64,000 nucleotides of DNA from a virus (Duplodnaviria; Caudoviricetes): positions 64,001 to 128,000 of IMG/VR virus record IMGVR_UViG_3300000439_000004; one strand, written 5' to 3'. How positions within the stretch are numbered: position 1 is the first letter of the stretch; every line of letters begins with the position of its first letter. The translations under genes and the position numbers were made by a program. Shown here one piece after another: positions 7,979 to 60,921 of this stretch. The notes beneath the pieces were generated by a model. It had not been told where the DNA came from and made no database searches. It was given only the letters and a program-made list of their open reading frames with translations.

Positions 7979-8031
7979 ACCTTTATTAATCATTAAAAAA
8001 GATTTATATTAATAGAAAAGTATTTATATAT

Positions 8032-13349: not shown

Positions 13350-13388
13350 TAAGAATATCGACATATTTATAGTAATAACAAACTATAA

Positions 13389-13457
13389 ATGAAGGTATTA
13401 AAAGAAAAAAGATTATCTGCTAATGGGTATAAATGGAAATATTCTAATATTTATTAG
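13389..13457 (+). pseudogene. Mini-ORF ending in a NUMOD1-like endonuclease tail (relic)
   Basis: MKVLKEKRLSANGYKWKYSNIY*; resembles the end of ORF 53131 (KGRYKTTGGFKFTY). Confidence 0.5.
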
Positions 13458-13460
13458 GAT

Positions 13461-15308
13461 ATGGATAAGAATACAACATATAAAGATAATAGAATCCTTT
13501 TAATCGAATACGATGCAGGATACGTATCTCCTAAAGAAAATACTAAGATTATACAGGAAATGAAGGATTTGGACTATTCAGAAGACCTTATCCTTTATGC
13601 TGTGCTACAAAAATATGATACACCAAATAAGAATGGTAGAATTTATCCCGAAGTATTATTAAAGAGGGAAAACGAAAAATATCAATCTGTAATTAAAAAA
13701 GGTAGTGCTTTAAATGAATTAAATCACCCTTCATGTCACACGGGTGATGTTGATATTTTAACAACCTCTGGTTGGAAAAATATCCAAAATTTAAGTGAGT
13801 TTGAAGAAATTATCACATTAAATGAAAATGGTGTTCAAGAGAACAAAAAAATTTATTCAACGGTAAAAGAAAAATATAAAGGTAAGATGATTCGATTATA
13901 TGGTCGTAACATTAATACTTTAGTAACTCCTAACCATAAATTTCCTGTTATAAACAATAAAAAATTTTCATTTATAACATCAGAAGAAATTTTAAAATCT
14001 TTTAATCAAAATAATAAACTTTCAAATTTTTATATACCTAAAGTAAGTAAAGTAAATGATTTGAAAAATGAATATTTTAAATTGGAAGGGGTTTTAGAAA
14101 ATGAATTTGATATAAGATGTGAGGAAGATGTTAAATTTTTATATAAAAAAGATTTATATATACCTATGGATGTTTTTATGTGGTTTATGGGTATATATTT
14201 ATCTGAAGGACATGTTGGTTTAAGTAGCGTTAAAAAAAGAAAATCAATTCTTTCAAATGGTGAAACATGTTACTATGAATCATCCGATAATGGTTATATT
14301 GTTGGTATTTCGCAAAAAAAAGAAGAATCTACAGAATTAATTGAGGGATTATTATCTTTTTTACCGTTTAATGTAAAAAAATATGTTAAAAAAAATGGTA
14401 CAACTTCATTTATAATTAATGATAGACGATTGTGGAAATTTTTAAAACCTTTGGGAAAATCACATCAAAAATATATCCCTGAAATCTTAAAAAATCAATC
14501 ACCTGAAAATTTAGAAAACCTTATTAAATGGTTTAAATTAGGAGACGGTAGAACTATTGGAAAATACAACCAATCTGATATATTTTCAACATCAGAAAAA
14601 TTAATTAATGATTTGCAAGAAATTCTAATAAAAACAGGTAAGTCTGGAAATATTAGAAAAGAAATAAGAAATAAAGATAGGTTTATTATTGAAGATAATG
14701 GTAAAAAACGTCTAATAAAAGGTGAAAATACCAAAGACATGTGGTTTTTAACATTATCAAAAACAAATGGGATATATTTAGACAATCGTAGTCTTAAAGT
14801 TACTGAAGAAGATTTCGATGACTATGTTTATTCTGTTGACGTTCCAAACCATACGTATTATGTTAGAAGTAATGGTAAGTGTCATTGGACTGGAAATTCT
14901 TCACTTATCGACTTAGATAGAGTTTCACATTCAATATTGGAAACATGGTGGGATGGAAAAATGTTAATGGGGAAAATTAAATTATTCACATCACCAGGTT
15001 GGAAAAAAATGGGCATTGTTAGTACCAAGGGTGACCAAGCTGCAATGTTATTAATGAACGGAGCAACACTTGGTATTTCTTCACGCGGTGTTGGTTCATT
15101 AAAGAATGTTAAAGGACAAAACATAGTTCAAGATGATTTTGAATTAGTGTGTTTTGACTTAGTATCATCACCATCTACACCTGGTGCATACATTTTTGCA
15201 GATCCATCTGAAAGAGACCAATATCAAGAATCTGAAGGAGAAAAACCTGCGGTAGACGATCGCATGAAAAAATTAATGGGTAATTTAAATAATTTTTTAT
15301 CAAAATAA
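13461..15308 (+). CDS. Prohead core protease (T4 gp21-like) with intein
   Basis: NKNGRIYP, ELNHP, RVSH, GISSRGVGS, DLVSSPSTPGA. Confidence 0.95.
   Translation: MDKNTTYKDNRILLIEYDAGYVSPKENTKIIQEMKDLDYSEDLILYAVLQKYDTPNKNGRIYPEVLLKRENEKYQSVIKKGSALNELNHPSCHTGDVDILTTSGWKNIQNLSEFEEIITLNENGVQENKKIYSTVKEKYKGKMIRLYGRNINTLVTPNHKFPVINNKKFSFITSEEILKSFNQNNKLSNFYIPKVSKVNDLKNEYFKLEGVLENEFDIRCEEDVKFLYKKDLYIPMDVFMWFMGIYLSEGHVGLSSVKKRKSILSNGETCYYESSDNGYIVGISQKKEESTELIEGLLSFLPFNVKKYVKKNGTTSFIINDRRLWKFLKPLGKSHQKYIPEILKNQSPENLENLIKWFKLGDGRTIGKYNQSDIFSTSEKLINDLQEILIKTGKSGNIRKEIRNKDRFIIEDNGKKRLIKGENTKDMWFLTLSKTNGIYLDNRSLKVTEEDFDDYVYSVDVPNHTYYVRSNGKCHWTGNSSLIDLDRVSHSILETWWDGKMLMGKIKLFTSPGWKKMGIVSTKGDQAAMLLMNGATLGISSRGVGSLKNVKGQNIVQDDFELVCFDLVSSPSTPGAYIFADPSERDQYQESEGEKPAVDDRMKKLMGNLNNFLSK
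13734..14897 (+). mobile_element. Intein with LAGLIDADG endonuclease in prohead protease (388 aa, ends Gly-Asn)
   Basis: NHPS|CHTGDV...VTPNH...MGIYLSEG...LGDG...HWTGN|SSL. Confidence 0.9.
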
Positions 15309-49225: not shown

Positions 49226-50200
49226 ATGACATTTAATGATTTCAAAACATTTTTTTCAAGTAACCTAAAATGGGTATATAGAGATAAATGTGATGCTGTT
49301 CTTAAAAGACAATACACTAAAATTGGTAAATATCGTTTTTGTGATAAAAATCAAAAATATGGTATCCTTGATAATGATGGTAGATGGGGGTTTGAAAATA
49401 CCATAAATACTAATTCAAGATGTGCATTAGAATTATATAATATTTATCTTGAGTTTGGTAATGAAAAATTAGATTTTTTTGATAATACAGAATATTCAAT
49501 TAATAAATTATGGAATTTTATTGAAGAAAACTTTGAATTATTGTTAACTTATAATATTGAAACAAAATACTATCATAGGTTTAGACTTATTTGTAATCTT
49601 TCTTGGTCAAGAGGTCAAATAACATCGGTTTTATTTTACCTAACTCATAAAAATATATTTCCTGACACTATTAAAACGACTATTGAATTAGAAAGAGGTT
49701 TGTTTTTAGATTTAAAAGGAATTGATGGATTGTTAACACAAAAAGATGGGACTGATATAACGTTACAAATAAAAAGTGGATCTTTTGAAAAGAAGAAACG
49801 ATTTTATATAATTAATGGTGCTCAAAATGATTTTAATAGTCCCACTAATTATTATTGTTATATTAATATCGGTGAAAATAATAACCAAATTATTGTTTTT
49901 GAAAATAAAAAAGAAAACATAATGTCAAATGGTAGTCAATGTATAATTGATGAAGAATTTGTAAAATATATAGATATGGAAAATAAAGAAAATATATCAC
50001 AAAAATTAATGGAAATATTATTGTTTTGTTCAAAAAATAAATTTGTTTTTGAATTAAAAAATAATGAAGATGAAAATGGATTTAAAATTGATACTGAACC
50101 TGAAAAAGTGGTAACAATTTCAATTAAAGATTTTGAAGATAAAGATTTATATGATTTATTGGAAGAGAACTTTAACTTATTAAAGAATCTCCCCCAATAA
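49226..50200 (+). CDS. Hypothetical protein, possible PD-(D/E)xK-like nuclease
   Basis: DLKGIDGLL...TLQIK motif. Confidence 0.4.
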   Translation: MTFNDFKTFFSSNLKWVYRDKCDAVLKRQYTKIGKYRFCDKNQKYGILDNDGRWGFENTINTNSRCALELYNIYLEFGNEKLDFFDNTEYSINKLWNFIEENFELLLTYNIETKYYHRFRLICNLSWSRGQITSVLFYLTHKNIFPDTIKTTIELERGLFLDLKGIDGLLTQKDGTDITLQIKSGSFEKKKRFYIINGAQNDFNSPTNYYCYINIGENNNQIIVFENKKENIMSNGSQCIIDEEFVKYIDMENKENISQKLMEILLFCSKNKFVFELKNNEDENGFKIDTEPEKVVTISIKDFEDKDLYDLLEENFNLLKNLPQ

Positions 50201-53026
50201 TTCTTTCGTAAAGGATTCTGAATATTCCCCGTCACCCATTACCTGATCTATAATGTTTTTCTTTTTATTCAACATATTATAGATTATTCTTTCTATTGTA
50301 TTATCAAATATTGGGTAATAAACCATGACACCCTTTTTTTGACCATATCTGTATGCCCTATCTTCTGCTTGTGAATGTAATGCCGGTACAAATGCCAAGT
50401 CATTCATAATTACAACTTCCGCTGCAGTTAAAGTAATGCCAACACCACCAGCAACAATGTTAGAAATGAATATTTTTATTTTATCTTCATTTTGAAATTT
50501 ATCAACACTTTCCTGTCTTTTTTCTTTTGACATTCTACCATCTAATATTACTGAATTTTTCTTGTATTTTTCATGTAACATATCCAATGTCATTGTGAAA
50601 TTAGTAAATACAATAACCTTTTTATCTTGTTCTAATGCTTTATCAATTAATTCACAAGTATAGTCTATTTTTTCAAATGATATTACTTGTCTAATTTTCA
50701 TTAAACGATTGATTGTAACGGTAATATTTTCATTATCCTTCTTTTCGTTAGAAATCCTCATGAAATCTTCCAACTCTTCTTCATAATAGGTACTTTTTAA
50801 CTCCAAAAAAACTGGTGATATAAACTTCTCTGGCAAATCTAATATATCCGTCTTCATTCGTCTTAAAACAAGGTTTTTTGTACGTTCTCTTAGTTCATCT
50901 AAGTGACTAGCACCACTAGTATTCCATATTTTTTTACCATTTACAGTAAATTGAAATCCTTTACAATATCTTTTAACATAACTTTGCCAATTAAGAGTTA
51001 AAGGTGATTCAACAATGTTCAAAAGATTAAAATAATTTATAGGTCTTGATGTCATGGGTGTACCAGTTAATAACCAAACTTTAGGTATTTTAGATAAAAT
51101 ATCATTTAATAGTTTAGTTCTATTTGCTGTGGTGTTTGAAATCATATGTGCTTCATCCACGATGGCTAAATCAAATTTTTCATTTTCTATTAAATTTAAT
51201 TCAGGGTTTTCGTTACCTATTGCATGATAGTTTTTTATAATATCATAATTGATAATATAAAACTTAAATGTAGACCCCCATTTTTTACCTTCGACAATTA
51301 AAACACGTTCATCTGAATAGTTTTTAATTTCTCTTAACCAGTTAATCTTTAATGATGCTGGACAAATAATTAATATTTTTTTTGCACCACTTTCTAATGA
51401 TGCAATGGCAGCTGAGGTTGTATTATGTGTAACAATAGCATGTTCAGCAACATATAATTTATCAGGTGAATCAACTGAAATACATGTGCATTCACTTTCA
51501 CCATATTTTTCAATATTGGTAATATATCTACCCGTTGGATATTTTTTAGGTTCATTATATAATTCTAATTTTCGTTTTAAACGAAATGGGTTCATACCTG
51601 GTGGTAATTTTATATTTAATCTATATGATATTTTACATTCAACTCTAACCCCGTTTTTTTTGTAAAAACTTCTTCTTGACCTTTTTCTACATATACCACC
51701 TAAAGTATGTACAATTTCAGCAAGATCGTCACATAATTTTTCAGATACGGTTGAATATTCAGTTCCATTAAAATTACCATTTTTTGATTTCATACAATGT
51801 CCATCAGTATCCATTAAACCTTGTAAAATAGATAAACGATTTTCAATTGATGAATATTTGTATATATCAGGTATAAATTTATTATGTGATCGAGTATGTT
51901 CCAAATGTAGATCAAATAATGAATTTCCAACATTTATATAACCATTTCTTTTGTTATCTTGTGGTTTATTTTCTTTTAATCCAAATAAACTAAATAAAGA
52001 ATCATAATCATCTTTATGAACAGAAAATTTTATGTTTTTATTTTTAAATGACCCGTCACCCAATCCAAGTCCTAACAAATAAGGATCAATCGGTAAAATA
52101 TTTTTATTATCAAATTCTATTGGTTTAACAATTGGTATTTGCCACTTATTATTTCCATTGGGGGATTTATAATATGTTTCAATTTTGTAATCTCTATCTT
52201 CATTATAACCACTACCTTTTATTAAAATTTTCCCACCTTCAAACATTTGTTTAGTTGATAATACTAAAGATTTTTTTAATCTATCATTTTTTCTATTTTT
52301 ACCATAATTTGGAGATGAAACTGACCATAAATGTTCATCCCCACTTAAAATTGTATATCCATCATTAAAAGTTATTTTATACGTTTCTTTTTTACCTTGA
52401 GGAAATACACCAATTACATTACACGGTTTACCATTTGAACCGATTACCTTATCACCAATAACAATTTCACCCATTTTTTTCACACCTAACTCATTGTAAA
52501 TCAATGTGTTATTGTCTAAAAATTTCCCTAAACCCATATCATCCGCTAATATGAATTTATCATTTGCCAATAATTTTTCAATTGCAATTTTTTGATGATC
52601 CATTGGTGGTCTGGTACTATAAGGACTATAATCAATAACTCTATTTAACTTTTTTTCAGGTTGAACAATTGCCGCCTTTGGTAACCAAAATGCATGATTA
52701 ACTTCGTGATCAAGATATTTTCCCCATATATGGTAAGCCTTATCGCTTTCACATAATAATTTTTCACACCAAATATGTTCCAATTTATCTAATAATAGAC
52801 GTTCATCCATTATTTTTTCAGCGAAAGAATCAACTATTTTAATATGTTTTTTTGCTACTTTTGGTTCAACGTTATGGTAGTTTAATACATAATCTGATTG
52901 TGGGCGTGTCAATTTAAAGTTCTTAACAGACGTGAACTTGTTCTTCAATTCTAATAGATGGTTATTTGCACCACTATATTCTAATAATATTTCTCTAGCC
53001 CTGATTTCAGGAATTTTATTATTCAT
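50180..53026 (-). CDS. SNF2-family helicase with class 3 intein
   Basis: LADDMGLGK|T, ICPASLKINW, IVDEAH, LTGTP, QAEDRAYRYGQ. Confidence 0.92.
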   Translation of the reverse strand: MNNKIPEIRAREILLEYSGANNHLLELKNKFTSVKNFKLTRPQSDYVLNYHNVEPKVAKKHIKIVDSFAEKIMDERLLLDKLEHIWCEKLLCESDKAYHIWGKYLDHEVNHAFWLPKAAIVQPEKKLNRVIDYSPYSTRPPMDHQKIAIEKLLANDKFILADDMGLGKFLDNNTLIYNELGVKKMGEIVIGDKVIGSNGKPCNVIGVFPQGKKETYKITFNDGYTILSGDEHLWSVSSPNYGKNRKNDRLKKSLVLSTKQMFEGGKILIKGSGYNEDRDYKIETYYKSPNGNNKWQIPIVKPIEFDNKNILPIDPYLLGLGLGDGSFKNKNIKFSVHKDDYDSLFSLFGLKENKPQDNKRNGYINVGNSLFDLHLEHTRSHNKFIPDIYKYSSIENRLSILQGLMDTDGHCMKSKNGNFNGTEYSTVSEKLCDDLAEIVHTLGGICRKRSRRSFYKKNGVRVECKISYRLNIKLPPGMNPFRLKRKLELYNEPKKYPTGRYITNIEKYGESECTCISVDSPDKLYVAEHAIVTHNTTSAAIASLESGAKKILIICPASLKINWLREIKNYSDERVLIVEGKKWGSTFKFYIINYDIIKNYHAIGNENPELNLIENEKFDLAIVDEAHMISNTTANRTKLLNDILSKIPKVWLLTGTPMTSRPINYFNLLNIVESPLTLNWQSYVKRYCKGFQFTVNGKKIWNTSGASHLDELRERTKNLVLRRMKTDILDLPEKFISPVFLELKSTYYEEELEDFMRISNEKKDNENITVTINRLMKIRQVISFEKIDYTCELIDKALEQDKKVIVFTNFTMTLDMLHEKYKKNSVILDGRMSKEKRQESVDKFQNEDKIKIFISNIVAGGVGITLTAAEVVIMNDLAFVPALHSQAEDRAYRYGQKKGVMVYYPIFDNTIERIIYNMLNKKKNIIDQVMGDGEYSESFTKELLGEIL
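51422..52522 (-). mobile_element. Class 3 intein starting with Phe, LAGLIDADG endonuclease, 367 aa
   Basis: GLGK|FLDNNT...DEHLW...CTCISV...IVTHN|TT. Confidence 0.88.
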
Positions 53027-53074
53027 AATAAAATATAATAAAATGGAATGACATTTTAAAGTATTTATAAGTAT

Positions 53075-53128
53075 ATGGATAATAAATTACCTATCACGCG
53101 TCTTTCTAAATTAAAAATCTATTTATAA
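53075..53128 (+). pseudogene. Orphaned duplicate of the start of the gene at 53888
   Basis: MDNKLPITRLSKLKIYL* versus MSDSRIPITRLSKFISE. Confidence 0.75.
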
Positions 53129-53130
53129 TT

Positions 53131-53895
53131 ATGATAATTTATAAAACAACAAATATAATAAACAATAAAATTTATATCGGTCAAGATAAAAATAATAATC
53201 CTAATTACATTGGTTCTGGTAATCTAATAAAATATGCAATAAAGAAATATGGAAAAGAAAATTTTATTAAAGAAATTTTATACTATTGTTTAACGATAAA
53301 TGAGTTAAATGAAAAAGAACGTTTTTATATAAAACAATATAATTCTACCGATAAAAATATTGGTTATAATATTTCTGTTGGTGGAACGAATGGCGTGATG
53401 TTGTTTAGAAAACATACAAAAGAAACAATTGAAAAAATGAAAAATTCATCAATAGGTAAAAAAAAGTCAGAATCTCATTGTAAAAACATTGGATTATCTA
53501 AAAAAGGTAGAATAGTATCCGATGAAGAAAAAAGAAAAAGAAGTGAGAATAGTCCATTAAAGGGAATTAAAAAATTACCAATGAGTGATGAAATTAAAAA
53601 AAAGATTAGTGAAACGAAAAAGGGTACTAAACATCGTAAAGAAACTATACTAAAATTAAGGGAATTAAATATTGGATCAAAAAATTATTTTTATGGTAAA
53701 AAACATTCAGAAGAATTTTTAAAATCTAAAAGGAAAAAAATAATACAAATTAGTTTAAATGATGAATTTATCAAAGAGTGGGAAAGTTTAAGTGAAGCAA
53801 GTAAAAACTTGAATATTTATGTAAGTAATATCTGTAATGTCTTAAAAGGAAGATATAAGACTACAGGTGGTTTTAAATTTACATATTATGAGTGA
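53131..53895 (+). CDS. Free-standing GIY-YIG homing endonuclease with NUMOD3/NUMOD1-like repeats
   Basis: IIYKTTN...KIYIG, YIGSG, GYN; HTKETIEKM, HSEE, TTGGFKF. Confidence 0.9.
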   Translation: MIIYKTTNIINNKIYIGQDKNNNPNYIGSGNLIKYAIKKYGKENFIKEILYYCLTINELNEKERFYIKQYNSTDKNIGYNISVGGTNGVMLFRKHTKETIEKMKNSSIGKKKSESHCKNIGLSKKGRIVSDEEKRKRSENSPLKGIKKLPMSDEIKKKISETKKGTKHRKETILKLRELNIGSKNYFYGKKHSEEFLKSKRKKIIQISLNDEFIKEWESLSEASKNLNIYVSNICNVLKGRYKTTGGFKFTYYE

Positions 53896-54403
53896 TTCAA
53901 GAATTCCTATTACGAGACTTTCTAAATTTATTTCTGAAGATGATTTTCAACTCAATATTTCAATGGGGGAAGAATACCTTCATGGTGATTTAAATATGAA
54001 ACTTGTATTATATAGGGTTGATAGACAAAAAACAGATATTGACAATGTATATGGTGAAGTTGGGATGGATGAAATTAAATATCAACCACCTGTTGAATTT
54101 AATGCTTTGGTTAAAATTATTGAACCAAAAAATAGTTCATATAAGGATGGTTTGGTAAGATATAATGAACCCGGAAATATGACTGTATCAGTTTATATCA
54201 AACATTTAAATGATATGAAAATTGATATTAAATATGGTGATTATATAGGTTATCCTGAATCTGAAACAAAAACAAGATATTATAGTGTTGTGGACGATGG
54301 AAAAGTAACTTCAGACAATAAACATACGATGTTCGGTTATAAACCTTTTTACAGGACTATAACTTGTTCACCTGTACAAGACGGAGAATTTAGAGGAGTT
54401 TAA
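53888..54403 (+). CDS. Probable head completion/neck protein (gp14-like)
   Basis: VLYRVD...NVYGE...PPVE...GD pattern; position before the tail terminator-like gene; start ATG 53888. Confidence 0.55.
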   Translation: MSDSRIPITRLSKFISEDDFQLNISMGEEYLHGDLNMKLVLYRVDRQKTDIDNVYGEVGMDEIKYQPPVEFNALVKIIEPKNSSYKDGLVRYNEPGNMTVSVYIKHLNDMKIDIKYGDYIGYPESETKTRYYSVVDDGKVTSDNKHTMFGYKPFYRTITCSPVQDGEFRGV

Positions 54404-54404
54404 T

Positions 54405-55640
54405 ATGGGAATACCAAGAAGAAAAACGAATATTCAAATATATTCGGGGAAAATTTTAACGGATAGAAGACAAGAATTGTTAGATAACATCACAAAAAAT
54501 GATCCTTATCTACCTGATAGTATATTGCATGATGATTTAGATAGAGGTTTATTGGATTATGTGATTGATAATTTTAAAGTTACATCTGATGGTAAACAAA
54601 TTCCTATTATAGAAAAAATATTAACAATACAAAGATGGGCAGAATTTACAAATAATTGGGAGTTTACAGATGAGGATGGTGTTGTTCAATTACCATTTGT
54701 TTCAATTATTAGAAAACCTGATGTACAATTTGGTACAAATCCATCCGTTCAAAGAACAATACCTGATAGACATCAGTTTTATTATTCTGTTGTACAAACT
54801 TGGAATGGTAATGAGAAAGGTGCCGATGTTTATAAAATACCACAACCAATACCTGTTGATATTACATATGATGTTACAATTATTTGTAATAAGTTTAGAG
54901 ATGTGAATAAATTTAATAAAATTGTTTTACAACATTTTGCATCAAGACAAGATTATACAATTGTTAAAGGACATTATATTCCAATAGTTCTTGACAAAAT
55001 TGAGGATAATACACCGATGCAAACATTGGATGGTCGTAGATTTTATGTTCAAAATTATCAATTCACAATGTTAGGATTTTTAATTGATAGTGATGAATTT
55101 GAAGTTAAGCCGGCAATAAGTAGGGCAATATTGACTGATGAAATCATTGTAGAAGGTAAACCAAATAAATCAATAAAACAAACTGTTATTGATATTAGTA
55201 TGGCTTCTTTCACTGGAAATGACTCTCAAATAATATTTTCAGTAGGTGAACCTATGGGTGTTTTATTTAATGTAACAATTAATGGTTTAACACAAAGGGA
55301 AGGGGTAGATTATTTTCACATTGCAAATTCTTCAAGAATATCATTCTCAGTACCACCACAATCCGGTAGTGTAATACTTATAACATATTATAAAGGAAGA
55401 AACTCAACAATTACAAATAGTGATGGTTTAAGATTAAATTACACTATTGAATATTTTACCTATGATGGTTCAACTTTAATATTTAATACATCAAATACAA
55501 TTGCTAGTGTTGTATTTTTAGAAGTTAATGGTTTAATTGAAGAAAAATCAGTTGATTATAGAATTTCTACTTTAGGTGGTTTAGAACTATTACAATCCCC
55601 TGTTATTGGATCTACCATTGGTGTTGGTTACTTATATTAA
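54405..55640 (+). CDS. Probable tail terminator/sheath stabiliser (gp15-like) with C-terminal beta repeats
   Basis: QLPFVSI, PIPVDITY; NGL.Q..G.DY repeats. Confidence 0.55.
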   Translation: MGIPRRKTNIQIYSGKILTDRRQELLDNITKNDPYLPDSILHDDLDRGLLDYVIDNFKVTSDGKQIPIIEKILTIQRWAEFTNNWEFTDEDGVVQLPFVSIIRKPDVQFGTNPSVQRTIPDRHQFYYSVVQTWNGNEKGADVYKIPQPIPVDITYDVTIICNKFRDVNKFNKIVLQHFASRQDYTIVKGHYIPIVLDKIEDNTPMQTLDGRRFYVQNYQFTMLGFLIDSDEFEVKPAISRAILTDEIIVEGKPNKSIKQTVIDISMASFTGNDSQIIFSVGEPMGVLFNVTINGLTQREGVDYFHIANSSRISFSVPPQSGSVILITYYKGRNSTITNSDGLRLNYTIEYFTYDGSTLIFNTSNTIASVVFLEVNGLIEEKSVDYRISTLGGLELLQSPVIGSTIGVGYLY

Positions 55641-55921: not shown

Positions 55922-58900
55922 ATGGCAAATTCAAACAGAGTATTCGTTTCTCCGGGTGTATATACATCAGAGCTCGATTTAACATTTGTGGCACAAAGTG
56001 TTGGTGTTACAACATTGGGTTTAGTGGGTGAGACTTTAAAAGGTCCGGCTTTTGAACCTATCTTAATTTCATCTTGGGATGATTTTACAACATATTTTGG
56101 TAGTTCTTCACCTGAAAAAGATGGTGTTGGAAATCCAAAATACGAATTACCTTACTTCGCAAATTCTTATTTATCAGAAGCAAATCAATTATTCGTTACA
56201 AGAATACTTGGTTATACAGGGTATAAACAATATAATACATTTGGTATTAGTACAGAAGGTGGCGCACAAATTACAAACTATTCAACAAGTGCATTAACAA
56301 TAACAACTGTAACTGGTATTACTATTCCATCAAATCATGTTATAATTTCATCATTTAGTAATTACACTTCAATATCTGGTACAATGCAAAAAGCGTTTTC
56401 AGGTATGACAGGAAGTACTTTTTACTCAAATTTATCAGGAAAAACTGCCGTTAGTGGAACAACAGGTACAACAGTTGTGTCATATATAACTGGTGGTACC
56501 TTTAATAATGGTGATTATTTCACTATTGGTTATGTACCAACAGGTTTAACATCAGGATTAACAGGTAATACATTAGTGTCTCCAATTGGTACTTTAACAG
56601 ATTTAAATTGGAATGATGTGTATTATACAGGTACAACTGCAAGTATTACATCAACAACTGGTGTTTATTCATATTTATTTGTTTATTCAGCATCAACATC
56701 TACTTTTAATGTCACTAGATTACTTTATAGTGCTTCATATCAATATAGTATAAATGACCCTAATTTCCAATTTTATCCACAATTATCTGGTAACACCGCA
56801 AGTAATGGAACATTATTAAATAATTATATTTTATCAAATATTAGTGGTAATACAAGTACTGATAGTACATGGTTTACAATTGGTCTTGTACCTAGTAGTT
56901 ATACTAGTGGTTTAACAACAACTTTAAATGTACCATCGCCAGTAACATCAAGAAATAATGCTAGCGATTATAATGGTAAAGAATGGTATAATATTTTTTG
57001 TGATTTGGATTTATCAGGTAATATACAAAGTGTTTCATCATATTTATTTCAATATTATTTAAATAGTGATAATACTAATACACCTTTTTATAGTGTAACA
57101 AGATTTCAATATCCAGCCACTATAAATTCAGCATACGATGACATTATTGTTGCCGCATTAAGACCTCGTGGACATTATTCAAGTAATGTATTGAAATATG
57201 AGGTTACTGGTAGTTCATATGTTAATATCACATCATCATATGATTTATCACAAAACCCATTCGCTGATTTTGTAATAAATGTAACCGGTAATACTGGTGG
57301 TGCTAAATCATTGACAGTTAATTTAGATCAAACATCAAATAAATCAATAACAAAAGTATTAGGTACAGATGTTTATGATAGAAATTACACAGATAATCCA
57401 TTATATGTTTTTGAATTCTATCCTAACTTTTTATTAAACGCATTTGAACAAGGTTATATTAGAGGTATTTCAACACAAGTTATTTATGATACAAATAATG
57501 ATTCATTTTTACCTAACCCTAATGGAGATTATGGTTCATATAAAGCATATGATACCCCAATGTCACCAACGGTTGTTTCTGAAGTAAGAGGTGGTAAAGT
57601 ATTAGATTTATTTAATATAATTACAATATCAGATGGTGACTCAGCAAATGAAGATATTAAAATAACAATTCAAAATATCAATACAGATACTGGTGAATTT
57701 GATTTAATTGTTAGAGATTTTAATGATAGTGATTCAAATCAAGTTTTACTTGAAAAATTTTCAAGATGTTCTATGAATCCAGATGTTCCAGGTTATGTGG
57801 CGTTAAAAGTAGGTACATCTGATGGACAATTCCCATTATTATCAAAATATATAATGTTGAGTATGGACCCTAACGCACCTTCTGATGCAATACCTGCTGG
57901 ATTTAGAGGTTTTGTAAGAAATAGTGATTTTGGTTCAGGTAATGAAAAACTTGGTTCAGTACTTTATAAAACACAATATTTCACCGCTGGTGATACAATG
58001 TATTATGATAGTACAGGTGCACCTATTACTTCATCAGGTGATAAAGTTAGAAACGTAACATTAGGTTTATCTTCATCAAATGGTTTCAATTATGATGCAG
58101 ATTTATTCAAATATAAAGGTTGGAGATCAGCGGGACAAACATTTGGTTTCCACTTATCCGTAAATGCAACTGGTATAACTCAAACTGGTACAACATATCA
58201 AACAACACCTTACGATTTTGAGGGTCAAACTGGTACTAATAATATGTTAAATACACCAGCGAATTGTAAATTTACTTTTGCAGTATGTGGTGGTTTTGAT
58301 GGTTGGGACATATATAGAAACACTAGAACATATGGTGACGCTTATATTTTAGGTAAATCAACATACAATAATAATAACATAAACAATGGAGGTATATTTA
58401 ACGTAACGAATGGTAATTCGGATTACTATTCATATTATGACGGTATCCAAACATTTGCAAATCCAGAAGCAGTAGATATTAATGTATTCGCAACACCGGG
58501 TATTAACTTCTTTGATCATAGTTCTTTAACAAATCAAGCAATTGAAATGATTGAAGTTGATAGAGCGGATTCATTATATGTCATATCATCACCTAATGAA
58601 AGTACTGCGGATGGTGTAATTGGTGATATTATGGATCAAGAATATGATAGTAACTATTCGGCAACATATTGGCCTTGGATTCAAGTAAAAGATGTTGATA
58701 ATGCAACCCAAATTTATATTCCACCAACAGGGGAAGTATTGAGAAATATTGCGTTAACTGATAATATAGCATACCCTTGGTACGCATCGGCTGGTTATTC
58801 AAGAGGTCTTGTTAATTCAATTAAAGCAGTTAAAAAATTAACTGCCGATGAAAGGGATAATTTATATAAAAATAGAATTAACCCAATTGCAACATTCTCC

Positions 58901-59269
58901 GATACTGGTACAATCATTTGGGGTAATAAAACACTTCAAGTTAGAGAATCTGCACTTGATAGAATTAACGTAAGAAGATTATTATTGAGAGCAAGAAAAT
59001 TAATTTCAGCTGTTTGTGTAAGATTATTGTTTGAACAAGATGATGATCAAATTAGACAAGAATTCTTGAGATTAGTTAATCCAATTCTTGATGCAATTAA
59101 GAAAGAAAGAGGTTTAACTGATTTCCGTGTAACTGTTTCTAATGACCCGGCAGATATTGATGCTAACACTTTGAGTGGTAAAATATATATTAAACCAACT
59201 CGTAGTTTGGAATTTATTGATGTAGAATTTATCATAACTCCAACAGGAGCTTCATTTGAAAACGTGTAA
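55922..59269 (+). CDS. Tail sheath protein (gp18-like)
   Basis: SPGVYTSELD, YWPW, PWYASAGYSRG, INPI, WGNKTL, RINVRRLL, KPTRSLEFI. Confidence 0.96.
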   Translation: MANSNRVFVSPGVYTSELDLTFVAQSVGVTTLGLVGETLKGPAFEPILISSWDDFTTYFGSSSPEKDGVGNPKYELPYFANSYLSEANQLFVTRILGYTGYKQYNTFGISTEGGAQITNYSTSALTITTVTGITIPSNHVIISSFSNYTSISGTMQKAFSGMTGSTFYSNLSGKTAVSGTTGTTVVSYITGGTFNNGDYFTIGYVPTGLTSGLTGNTLVSPIGTLTDLNWNDVYYTGTTASITSTTGVYSYLFVYSASTSTFNVTRLLYSASYQYSINDPNFQFYPQLSGNTASNGTLLNNYILSNISGNTSTDSTWFTIGLVPSSYTSGLTTTLNVPSPVTSRNNASDYNGKEWYNIFCDLDLSGNIQSVSSYLFQYYLNSDNTNTPFYSVTRFQYPATINSAYDDIIVAALRPRGHYSSNVLKYEVTGSSYVNITSSYDLSQNPFADFVINVTGNTGGAKSLTVNLDQTSNKSITKVLGTDVYDRNYTDNPLYVFEFYPNFLLNAFEQGYIRGISTQVIYDTNNDSFLPNPNGDYGSYKAYDTPMSPTVVSEVRGGKVLDLFNIITISDGDSANEDIKITIQNINTDTGEFDLIVRDFNDSDSNQVLLEKFSRCSMNPDVPGYVALKVGTSDGQFPLLSKYIMLSMDPNAPSDAIPAGFRGFVRNSDFGSGNEKLGSVLYKTQYFTAGDTMYYDSTGAPITSSGDKVRNVTLGLSSSNGFNYDADLFKYKGWRSAGQTFGFHLSVNATGITQTGTTYQTTPYDFEGQTGTNNMLNTPANCKFTFAVCGGFDGWDIYRNTRTYGDAYILGKSTYNNNNINNGGIFNVTNGNSDYYSYYDGIQTFANPEAVDINVFATPGINFFDHSSLTNQAIEMIEVDRADSLYVISSPNESTADGVIGDIMDQEYDSNYSATYWPWIQVKDVDNATQIYIPPTGEVLRNIALTDNIAYPWYASAGYSRGLVNSIKAVKKLTADERDNLYKNRINPIATFSDTGTIIWGNKTLQVRESALDRINVRRLLLRARKLISAVCVRLLFEQDDDQIRQEFLRLVNPILDAIKKERGLTDFRVTVSNDPADIDANTLSGKIYIKPTRSLEFIDVEFIITPTGASFENV

Positions 59270-59289
59270 AATTTAAACATAATAATTTT

Positions 59290-59325
59290 AAAAAACCTTT
59301 TAAGAATTTCTTAAAAGGTTTTTTT
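59290..59325 (+). terminator. Intrinsic terminator after the sheath gene
   Basis: AAAAAACCTTTTAAGAA/TTCTTAAAAGGTTTTTT. Confidence 0.85.
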
Positions 59326-59388
59326 ATTTTAATACTTTTTACTATATTTATGTATATATGTTAACGTTACCATTAAATATATTTTACC

Positions 59389-60901
59389 ATGAAGATAGAA
59401 TTAAAATGTAAAAATTGTAATGAGTCATTTATGACTGATTTTAAATTTAGAGATAAAAGTTTTTGTAATAGAAAATGTTATTTTGAGTATGCAAATGAAA
59501 ATAAGTTACTGGGTAATAAGAAAGATGAATCAGTAAGGGAGAAGAGAATTTGTGTTCAATGTGGAGATGAATTTTTGGAGAGAAAAAAATATGAAAGAAA
59601 ATTATGTTCTGAAAAATGTAGAAAAGAATGGAATATTACTGAGGATAATAAAAATGACAGAATAAAAAAATCAAAAGAATCGATGATTAATAAATATGGT
59701 GTTGATTGTCATTTTAAAACTAATGATTTTAAACTTAATGTTAAAAATTTAATGTTTGAAAAACATGGTGTTTATCACCCAATGGAAAAAAAAGAATTTG
59801 TTGATAAATTAAAAAATACCTTTCGTGAAAATCATTTACCAAAATTAATACAGGAATTAAAAATAAATAATATAGAATTAATTGATGATTACATAAACAA
59901 TAAAGATAAAAATACAAGTAGAACATATAATTTTAAATGTTTAAAATGTGATAATATATTTTCAAGTACATTATTAGGTTCTGGTAAAATACCTATTTGT
60001 AGAAAATGTTATCCAATAATTAAAAATTCATCTATAGAAGTCTTTATTAAATGAAAACCAAATAACACATGTAGATGGTAATAGAAAAATTTTAAATGGT
60101 AAAGAAATTGATATTTTAATTAAAGAAAAAAATATTGGGTTCGAAATAAATGGTAATTATTATCATTCAGAAATAAGTGGAGAAAAAGACAAAAATTATC
60201 ATATTAATAAAAGTAAAATATGTTATGATAATAATATCAAATTAATACATATATATGAAGATGAAATAATGTTAAAATTTCCGATAGTTAAATCTAGAAT
60301 TAAAAATATATTGGGAATTTCTGAAAATAAAATATATGGTAGGAAATGTATTGTTAAAGAAATCGATAAAAAAACGGCATCTAATTTTTTAGATAAAAAT
60401 CACATACAAGGTAATTGTGTCGATAAAATTAGATTAGGTTTATTTTATGAAAACACATTGGTTTCTATTATGACATTTTCAAATAAAAGAAAAGTATTAG
60501 GTAATAAATCCGCAATAAATGAATTTGAATTAATACGATTTTGTAATATAGTTGATTCAAATGTAATTGGATCATTTTCAAAATTATTGAATTATTTTAT
60601 TAACAATTTTTCACCAAATAAAATTATTACATACGCAGATATTAGATGGTCAGGTTTAAATCCTGAAAGTACAATATACAAAAAATATGGTTTTAAATTT
60701 ATAGGTACAACACCACCAAATTATTGGTATTTAAATAGAGAAAATTATTTAAATAGATACCATCGTTTTAATTTTAGAAAAGATATTTTATTAAAAGAAG
60801 GATTTAATAAAATTCAAACAGAATGGGAAATTATGAAATTAAAAAATTATGATAGAATTTGGGATTGTGGATCAATGAAATTTGAACTAAATTTATTATA
60901 A
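59389..60901 (+). pseudogene. Frameshifted Hef-like/Vsr-type homing endonuclease with Zn fingers
   Basis: ORF 59389..60054 continues in the +1 frame from ~60047 (LNENQ...EIDI...GFEINGNYYHS...LIHIYEDE) into ORF 60269..60901 (YGRKC, NHIQG, ELIRFC, YADIRWS, IWDCG). Confidence 0.8.
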
Positions 60902-60921
60902 CACCAATAGGTGACTCATTT

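Follow-up and report, generated by a model that had tools for sequence, protein, structure and literature searches.

A Probable Homing Cassette That Replaces the 5′ End of a Putative Neck Gene in a Large Uncultured Phage

An endonuclease gene between two versions of a gene start

In a 64,000-nt stretch of a virus of the Caudoviricetes (hereafter the window; bases 64001–128000 of the 162-kb IMG/VR virus record IMGVR_UViG_3300000439_000004, the completeness of which is estimated at about half), a gene that probably encodes a neck or head-to-tail connector component is preceded by an endonuclease gene, and this in turn by a short stub that carries another version of the gene's beginning. We read this locus as a homing cassette that replaces the 5′ end of the gene it invades, and would put the probability of this explanation at roughly 0.85. 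A cassette of this kind had been proposed in an initial annotation made from the sequence of the window; all of its elements are present, with small corrections to the coordinates.

The elements lie in series on the plus strand. A promoter-like TATTTAT motif (53062–53068) stands 6 nt before the ATG of the stub, and the same motif is found at the same position in relatives with an empty, endonuclease-free allele (contigs L002–L004). The stub open reading frame (ORF; 53075–53128) runs from an ATG at 53075 to a TAA at 53128 and consists of 12 native codons, MDNKLPITRLSK, and five codons read through into the cassette, and 2 nt separate its stop from the endonuclease ATG. A second TATTTAT (53120–53126), the cassette's own, is placed 4 nt before that ATG and is kept at the stub–endonuclease junction of every cassette-bearing locus examined. 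The endonuclease ORF (53131–53895, 254 amino acids) carries a further TATTTAT within its 3′ end (53824–53830), ~58 nt before the new ATG of the downstream gene; this motif is found in the same place in L084, L086, and L089, and is retained in the endonuclease-less allele of L161. The endonuclease stop overlaps the new ATG within ATGAGTGA, so that the annotated arrangement, with an endonuclease between stub and gene, a TATTTAT of its own, and an overlap with the new start, is what the sequence holds. Here begins the substitute 5′ end (53888–53926), 13 codons reading MSDSRIPITRLSK, and with it the target gene (53888–54403), which encodes a conserved protein of 171 amino acids (170 or 171 among homologues). 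The gene is a continuous ORF, with neither an internal stop nor a gap, and aligns end to end with its homologues.

The likeness of the two starts is most direct in a 23-nt repeat, one copy of which lies in the stub (53090–53112) and the other in the substitute end (53906–53928): 20 of the 23 bases match, and all three differences are synonymous. A search allowing up to three mismatches finds only these two copies in the 64 kb and none in 100 shuffles; the repeat is therefore not due to chance. Short duplications do occur in AT-rich phage DNA, and a local tandem duplication of the gene start, with the endonuclease landing later in the spacer, might produce a similar picture. No relative, however, has the duplication without an endonuclease or its relics, and the layout of stub and substitute start recurs with related endonucleases at three other genes (see below); together with the shuffles, this leads us to consider such a duplication, or a chance similarity, very unlikely.

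Judged from its sequence, the insert is a free-standing Seg-like GIY-YIG/NUMOD homing endonuclease gene. The protein matches NUMOD3 (35.3 bits; cut-off 20.4) and the I-HmuI NUMOD-like domain (36.1 bits; cut-off 27) in Pfam, as well as PHROG 314, "homing endonuclease" (E 4e-47), and the 5′ part of the gene is similar at the DNA level to segB of T4-type phages. End-to-end alignment with relatives indicates that it is full length. The motif pair IIY (residues 2–4) and YIG (15–17) is invariant in this alignment, as are Glu63 and the Asn of GYN (78–80). The GIY-YIG models themselves score just below the curated Pfam cut-offs (PF19835, SegE_GIY-YIG, 22.3 vs. 25 bits; PF01541, 17.2 vs. 22.6 bits), and no Arg equivalent to R27 of I-TevI was identified by inspection of the alignment. 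A sequence search of solved structures with the endonuclease found nothing useful.

Neither the interrupted gene nor a 411-amino-acid neighbor has a Pfam or PHROG match. With the AlphaFold model of the interrupted gene's product (pLDDT 63), Foldseek ranks almost exclusively neck, connector, and tail-terminator chains of phages at the top, at weak scores (E 1e-3 to 1e-2, TM 0.4–0.6), and the Atlas leads are T4_neck-protein and head-tail-joining. The gene is located upstream of the tail sheath gene (55922–59269). With this moderate support from the modeled fold, the protein is probably a neck or head-to-tail connector component. The first 16 residues of the model are of very low confidence, and this may be a reason why this end of the protein tolerates substitution. 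The neighbor on the other side is an SNF2 helicase gene (50180–53026, minus strand) with an intein interruption; the window as a whole has a G+C content of 24–33%.

Empty alleles, mobility, and decay

The 171-amino-acid protein has 1354 database homologues. Among the best 120 of these, ~105 have 170 amino acids and start with MDNK, MNNK, or MENK, then LPITR, and nine have 171 amino acids and start with MSD[NS]R. The closest relatives among 80 viral contigs, L002–L004, show 93–95% identity in DNA and, by tblastn, in protein, and read MDNKLPITRLGKFISEDDFQL; their gene, MDNKLPITRLGKFISEDD, has no endonuclease between the stub peptide MDNKLPITRL(G)K and FISEDD. The initial annotation had suggested looking for relatives in which the stub peptide runs directly into FISEDD, and these three contigs, with FISEDDFQL, are such relatives.

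L002–L004 are collinear with the window on both sides but are without 53102–53923: window bases 52001–53101 and 53924–55000 align ungapped to stretches of these contigs that are 6 nt apart, with the blastn break at 53101/53924. At the left boundary, a stretch of at least 79 nt ending at 53091 is free of mismatches to L002–L004, and 53092–53107 contains 8 (binomial p = 9e-5 for 7 or more mismatches within 21 nt). At the right boundary, mismatches are found in 53914–53929, and the next ones only at 53953 (L003 and L004) or 53992 (L002). This mismatch map therefore gives a donor-derived tract, inserted and co-converted, of at least 53092–53929. On this comparison, ~820–840 bases of the window (at least this tract) are an insertion, the distal half of the stub arrived with the cassette, and co-conversion of the gene body was essentially nil, with the lineage-typical FISEDDFQL resuming directly.

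The junctions between stub and endonuclease are all alike, with a Lys codon, three further codons, TATTTAT, and 4–5 nt to the start; that this layout is common to all of them points to one original insertion. The endonuclease DNA is 88–89.5% identical among L084, L086, and L089, whereas their flanks are 66–76% identical; likewise, the 156-nt endonuclease fragment of L110 matches the window at 86.5%, and the adjoining SNF2 gene at 68%. A tree of the gene body, from residue 23 onward, places the window as sister to the empty L002 and L003 (support 100/100; 97% amino acid identity). The best tree requires 5 changes of the cassette label, and at least two are needed on well-supported branches. Close relatives thus differ in whether this one site is occupied, and the endonuclease is more similar between phages than its flanks are; these alignments show a mobile cassette that has spread horizontally between phages.

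The cassette also goes together with one form of the gene start. All 171-amino-acid alleles starting MS[DNE][NS]R[IL]PI have an endonuclease or its relics, and none of ~78 alleles with an MxNK start has an endonuclease. The cassette genotype of the window is found at 95–96% identity in four contigs from four other samples (L155–L158). These contigs, which come from four samples and assemblers, all begin within 2 nt of one position (~52975 of the window), ~117 nt to the left of the cassette boundary; their common start could be a point at which assembly broke off because variants with and without the cassette coexist.

Among the relatives, all stages of invasion, stub decay, decay and loss of the endonuclease, and scarring are represented. 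An intact stub ORF, complete with its ATG and the promoter motif before it, is found in the window, L084, L086–L088, and L089; in at least seven loci the stub is decayed or absent. Its start codon is lost in four lineages (L085/L091, L090, L110, and L128) in which the downstream gene is intact; because of this, the stub is, as read from these alleles, clearly dispensable. The substitute start is intact in every cassette-type allele. In L128, the endonuclease is frameshifted, and three alleles (L082/83, L159, and L161) start MSDNRIP without an endonuclease. The initial annotation had held that an endonuclease-less allele with a start of the form MSD.R would speak against a cassette; formally, these three are such alleles, but relics are clear in L161 and weaker in the others. 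In L161, the native promoter motif leads straight into the last 46 codons of the endonuclease, which the substitute start follows, and L159 retains a short piece of the stub junction. The spacer of L082/83 resembles the endonuclease 3′ end with p ~0.002 against L089 and 0.035 against L084 and L086, and not significantly against the window, and is only suggestive as a relic. Because of the relics that they carry, we read L161 clearly, and L159 and L082/83 more weakly, as postinvasion scars and not as naive alleles.

A variant of the insert itself is seen in L011:1–286, where, in the ORF ahead of a cassette-type start (MSDNRIP), two helix-turn-helix repeats take the place of the NUMOD-like C-terminus. 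This ORF has the same last codons and the same ATGAGTGA overlap, and the contig ends before its N-terminus; the endonuclease or its DNA-binding domain may have been exchanged here at the same site.

The decayed stubs also bear on the question of splicing. Joining 53112 to 53929 would formally restore the ancestral frame, as would be the case if the endonuclease sat in a self-splicing intron, or in another system of RNA or protein removal, and the stub were a true first exon joined to FISEDD, with the second in-frame copy a mere by-product. An Rfam scan of 52900–54100 (E ≤ 10), however, returned no group I or group II intron, its single hit being a chance match to MicA, and 53131–53895 holds no Hint/intein domain, the ORFs being separate and each having its own start and stop. 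Moreover, the stub is without a start codon in the four lineages named above while the gene is intact, the second copy keeps its ATG and conserved peptide in all alleles, and scar alleles exist without any stub. We regard splicing as hardly credible, and the splicing-free reading of the initial annotation is supported as far as sequence allows, by the missing intron model and by the loss of the stub ATG in front of intact genes. Three specific candidates were rejected: a group I intron-encoded endonuclease, in view of the lack of a ribozyme match and of the upstream "exon" that has no start codon in several relatives; an intein, in view of the separate ORFs and the lack of a Hint domain; and bypass of the MobA/gene 60 type, since the target gene is continuous, with no stop or gap. 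The stubs that are intact, with promoter motif and ATG, might instead suggest a gene in two functional pieces, the 17-amino-acid stub peptide still being needed alongside the 171-amino-acid product. But the downstream ORF is already complete, including the PITRLSKF motif, and the stub is dispensed with in the loci where it is decayed or absent; we give this idea almost no credence.

The substitute start, its origin, and its expression

Comparison of 42 distinct empty and 8 distinct cassette-type starts reveals constant differences: the empty form reads ATG GAY AAT AAA YTA, and the cassette form ATG AGT GAT AAY CGN ATH. The cassette start thus has one extra codon, Arg in place of Lys, and Ile in place of Leu, so that codons 2–5 differ nonsynonymously; codons 2–3 are constrained by the overlap with the endonuclease stop. 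The Leu codon is mostly CTT in the cassette form. The initial annotation had described the two starts as the same peptide with synonymous changes; this holds for PITRLSK in the window but not across the cassette alleles, given their extra codon and nonsynonymous codons 2–5.

A carrier allele would escape the enzyme because insertion breaks up the native site in the stub, and because the substitute start spells it differently (through the extra codon, codons 2–5, and other Arg and Leu codons); the substitute start may thereby be immune to cleavage. I-TevI binds at its insertion site and cuts 23–25 nt upstream. By analogy, a geometry of this kind would put the cut in codons 4–5, where the alleles differ, near the start of the donor tract at 53092.

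Several observations weigh against the proposed cassette or against parts of this account. The GIY-YIG scores below the cut-offs, together with the lack of an R27 equivalent, weaken the case for present activity of the predicted endonuclease. The window endonuclease matches its full-length relatives at 74–77%, which is not above the similarity of the flanks, and recent movement of the window's own copy is seen only through the 156-nt fragment of L110 and the near-identical contigs. The empty alleles show wide synonymous variation, with no sharply conserved nucleotide target. In PITRLSK, finally, the window stub is closer to the substitute copy than to the empty alleles, and this likeness, which shows the donor to be the source of the stub's distal part, weakens the simple argument that recoding gives immunity.

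The substitute start could also have a more passive origin, as the native 5′ end of a diverged donor lineage rather than an adapted immune form. The endonuclease would at first have been intergenic, just upstream of the gene; one illegitimate left junction in an MDNK-type phage would have made the stub, and ordinary intronless homing with hitch-hiking flanks would have followed. The constant differences, which are nonsynonymous and partly dictated by the overlap with the endonuclease stop, are in keeping with such an origin, and so are the substitute ends in thymidylate synthase (thyA) genes and in L245 (see below), which are diverged homologues of their stubs and not synonymous copies. A junction layout common to all loci implies a single origin, and the hybrids made by fungal mORFs have been interpreted in this way (PMC3630166). 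On the other hand, no relic-free lineage with an MSDNR start was found, L161 clearly and L159 and L082/83 weakly carrying relics; the design occurs at at least four genes, and at the prohead protease the endonuclease is fused in frame to the native start, so that the layout looks like a systematic outcome and not like one accident. We hold a donor-lineage origin to be possible but not probable; it differs from the cassette explanation given above only on the origin of the substitute start and on selection for immunity.

TATTTAT is a plausible promoter element. The motif is frequent just upstream of ORF starts, standing within 40 nt upstream of the ATG in 17 of the 56 window ORFs of at least 100 amino acids, often 4–7 nt away, and it is on this frequency that we base its assignment. 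In the window as a whole there are 76 copies on both strands, near a rough composition-based estimate, and the enrichment is found only just upstream of start codons. The copy at 53824–53830 is a possible promoter for the rebuilt gene. TATTTAT usually follows A or G, and a distance of 4–7 nt to the ATG leaves no room for a Shine–Dalgarno sequence (e.g., at 8020, 22930, 28350, 42305, and 43640); were the motif a −10-like element of late promoters, this phage would make many mRNAs with little or no leader.

Under the cassette explanation, the mobile unit would have three parts: a short left junction with its own TATTTAT, the endonuclease ORF, and the substitute start, comprising the overlapping ATG and 13 codons. 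Insertion would sever the native promoter, the ATG, and the first 12 codons from the gene, and these would remain upstream as a dispensable stub, which might initially act as a leader ORF of the endonuclease, its stop adjoining the endonuclease start. Expression of the rebuilt gene, a single uninterrupted ORF, would probably rely on read-through and on coupling of its translation to that of the endonuclease, and perhaps also on the TATTTAT embedded in the endonuclease 3′ end. The cassette would spread, as we infer from its family, in mixed infections, in which the enzyme cuts cassette-free alleles within or near codons 4–13 and repair copies the cassette from the donor, homology being provided by the stub region on the left and by the gene body on the right; in the window, almost nothing besides the cassette was co-converted.

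Recurrence at other genes and relation to known elements

The initial annotation had guessed that a decayed second example might lie at 13389 of the window, and comparison with empty and intact relatives of the prohead protease gene (13461–15308) confirms this. All features of this site are on the plus strand. The native TATTTAT of the gene (13364–13370), which lies in upstream DNA shared unchanged by the empty alleles L249 and L256, is followed by a mini-ORF (13389–13457) that, as judged from the intact relatives, joins the native MKVL (4 codons) to the last 18 codons of a deleted GIY-YIG endonuclease. The next element, identified by comparison with L249 and relatives, is a substitute 5′ end of 14 codons (13461–13502). 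In the closest empty alleles (L249 and L256/257), an MKVLGP start comes directly after the same upstream DNA, and empty starts overall are MKVLGP or MKILGP. The intact cassettes (L248, L250, L254, L255, and L259) have a GIY-YIG endonuclease ORF of 226 amino acids that begins with the native protease start codons and ends ...GGYKWTYSNIY; its last codons contain ATATTTAT, and the substitute start follows 3–4 nt later. Protease relatives with an endonuclease or its broken relics share the replacement-type start. Window bases 13401–13502 replace 33 nt of the empty allele L249, and an internal deletion has left MKVL fused to the endonuclease tail at this site. Both the prohead protease gene and the SNF2 gene (50180–53026) also carry inteins with LAGLIDADG-type domains (Pfam).

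Endonucleases 41–47% identical to that of the window are found in the 5′ end of the thymidylate synthase gene in L092–L101 and L106, which we compared with the loci L162–L241. In these cassettes, the stub ends at the conserved KKDR motif and is followed by a diverged full start. No near-isogenic empty allele was found for L092, the best relative being 66% identical, and the thyA case rests for this reason on the stub matching the common uninterrupted start. Most thyA alleles are uninterrupted through DRTGTGT, whereas the cassette-linked starts have a TRNG-type motif; this motif is present without an adjoining upstream ORF in ~10 of 70 thyA loci. The pattern suggests that endonuclease traffic has spread an altered thyA motif next to the active site. 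Several thyA starts are found in series (stub, thyA-like hybrid ORF, and real gene) around one endonuclease in L095:1–1400 and L096:2200–3873.

A third gene of this virus lies outside the window (L245:1309–3337, equivalent to G000:C1 ~158591–160619). Here, a stub of 37 codons is followed by an I-TevI-like GIY-YIG endonuclease of 302 amino acids, the stop of which overlaps the ATG of a gene of at least 336 amino acids; the first 35 residues of this gene resemble the stub (local score 94 vs. ~20 for controls). Its upstream neighbor looks baseplate-like by eye. Relatives of the window's neck-gene endonuclease below 40% identity have no stub, and the design is therefore not a property of the whole superfamily.

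What may be a mirror-image case at a 3′ end is seen in the window itself, where the end of the sheath gene (59269), with a terminator-like hairpin, is followed by two inserted ORFs (within 59269–60921). These encode a Zn-ribbon DUF7487 protein (59389–60054) and a Mom-family protein (60269–60901). A relic, FIITPIGDSF (60892–60921), copies the sheath C-terminus at 8 of 10 residues, and a second terminator-like hairpin follows.

The closest analogues of the neck cassette are eukaryotic. The mORFs of fungal mitochondria (Allomyces macrogynus atp6; Glomus atp6, atp9, cox2, and nad3) bring a foreign C-terminal copy of the invaded gene and leave the native C-terminus as a relic, and horizontal transfer has been inferred from the divergence between relic and replacement (PMC3630166). 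As in these elements, an endonuclease ORF sits in a coding gene, the foreign end keeps the frame, and the native end stands as a relic on the far side, with no intron or intein. Unlike the mORFs, which act at 3′ ends in an organelle, the window cassette replaces a 5′ end in a large uncultured phage; it must accordingly supply a start and expression signals, which here are the stop/start overlap and the embedded TATTTAT, and at the protease the fusion to the native start. The WHO elements of the yeasts Torulaspora and Lachancea, which are relatives of HO, cut one allele of the essential gene FBA1 and replace its 3′ end at each integration, without splicing, and their repeated homing builds arrays of old gene ends (Coughlan et al. 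2020, PMC7282813). These arrays are comparable to the serial thyA starts in L095 and L096. WHO proteins, however, are intein-derived, with LAGLIDADG and zinc-finger domains, and they act on the nuclear genome by 3′ replacement, with allele-specific cleavage shown by experiment; for the phage cassette, such cleavage is a prediction. Of the traits of such terminus-replacing elements, the neck locus has a working substitute end and a native relic, with the relic decaying and the substitute staying intact; the replaced end is the 5′ and not the 3′ one. By this analogy, the neck cassette is the 5′-end mirror image, in a phage, of the eukaryotic mORF and WHO elements.

Among phage systems, the cassette is like the intronless homing of the T4 Seg and Mob endonucleases (PMC2988022) in combining GIY-YIG with NUMOD, in its presence or absence at a fixed locus, in co-conversion of flanks, and in embedded promoters for a downstream essential gene. 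A review of the mobile elements of T4-like phages covers endonucleases lying between genes and three insertions that split genes, and says nothing of a gene end that is duplicated or replaced (PMC2988022). The T4 endonucleases either occupy intergenic positions or divide a gene into two polypeptides, both functional. MobA and the gene 60 bypass element of phage T4, which Bonocora and colleagues are said to have described in 2011 (PNAS), reportedly form a mobile cassette in which a change in the target gene accompanies the endonuclease and shields its carrier from cleavage. The protection there is said to consist of a 50-nt untranslated insert bypassed by ribosomes, in a gene that is split; the rebuilt neck gene, in contrast, is one continuous ORF. 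Fractured genes with split inteins and an endonuclease in the break, reportedly described by Dassa and colleagues in 2009, offer a free-standing endonuclease a further means of residing within a coding sequence; there the protein is repaired by trans-splicing, whereas in the neck cassette the gene would be repaired at the DNA level, by substitution. No phage description of the 5′-replacement layout was found in the literature searched, in which coverage of subscription journals was limited, so that this is not proof of absence.

On balance, and with only a slight leaning toward it, we propose that the four cases belong to a widespread class of homing cassettes, undescribed for phages, that large AT-rich uncultured phages carry and whose targets are the 5′ coding ends of essential genes (neck, prohead protease, thymidylate synthase, and the gene next to the baseplate-like gene). 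Each would bring a start codon, expression signals, and a surrogate N-terminus, and the native start would be stranded as a leader ORF or fused to the endonuclease; repeated invasion and loss would leave scars and diversify conserved N-terminal motifs (e.g., ThyA DRTGTGT to the TRNG type).

The usual view is that a homing endonuclease can persist inside an essential gene only if an intron or intein removes it at the RNA or protein level, and that it otherwise keeps to intergenic positions. The neck case and its relatives at three other genes would add a third route in phages, namely repair at the DNA level by a spare gene start that the element carries with it. Such cassettes would explain short orphan ORFs and odd N-terminal variants in phage annotations, and the relatives form a natural series of the endonuclease life cycle, from invasion through stub decay and enzyme decay to scar alleles. 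The paired alleles provide concrete sets of presumably cut and uncut targets on which to study the specificity of a new, putative set of GIY-YIG enzymes. More broadly, the cassettes suggest that selfish elements may act as diversifiers of the N-termini of conserved proteins.

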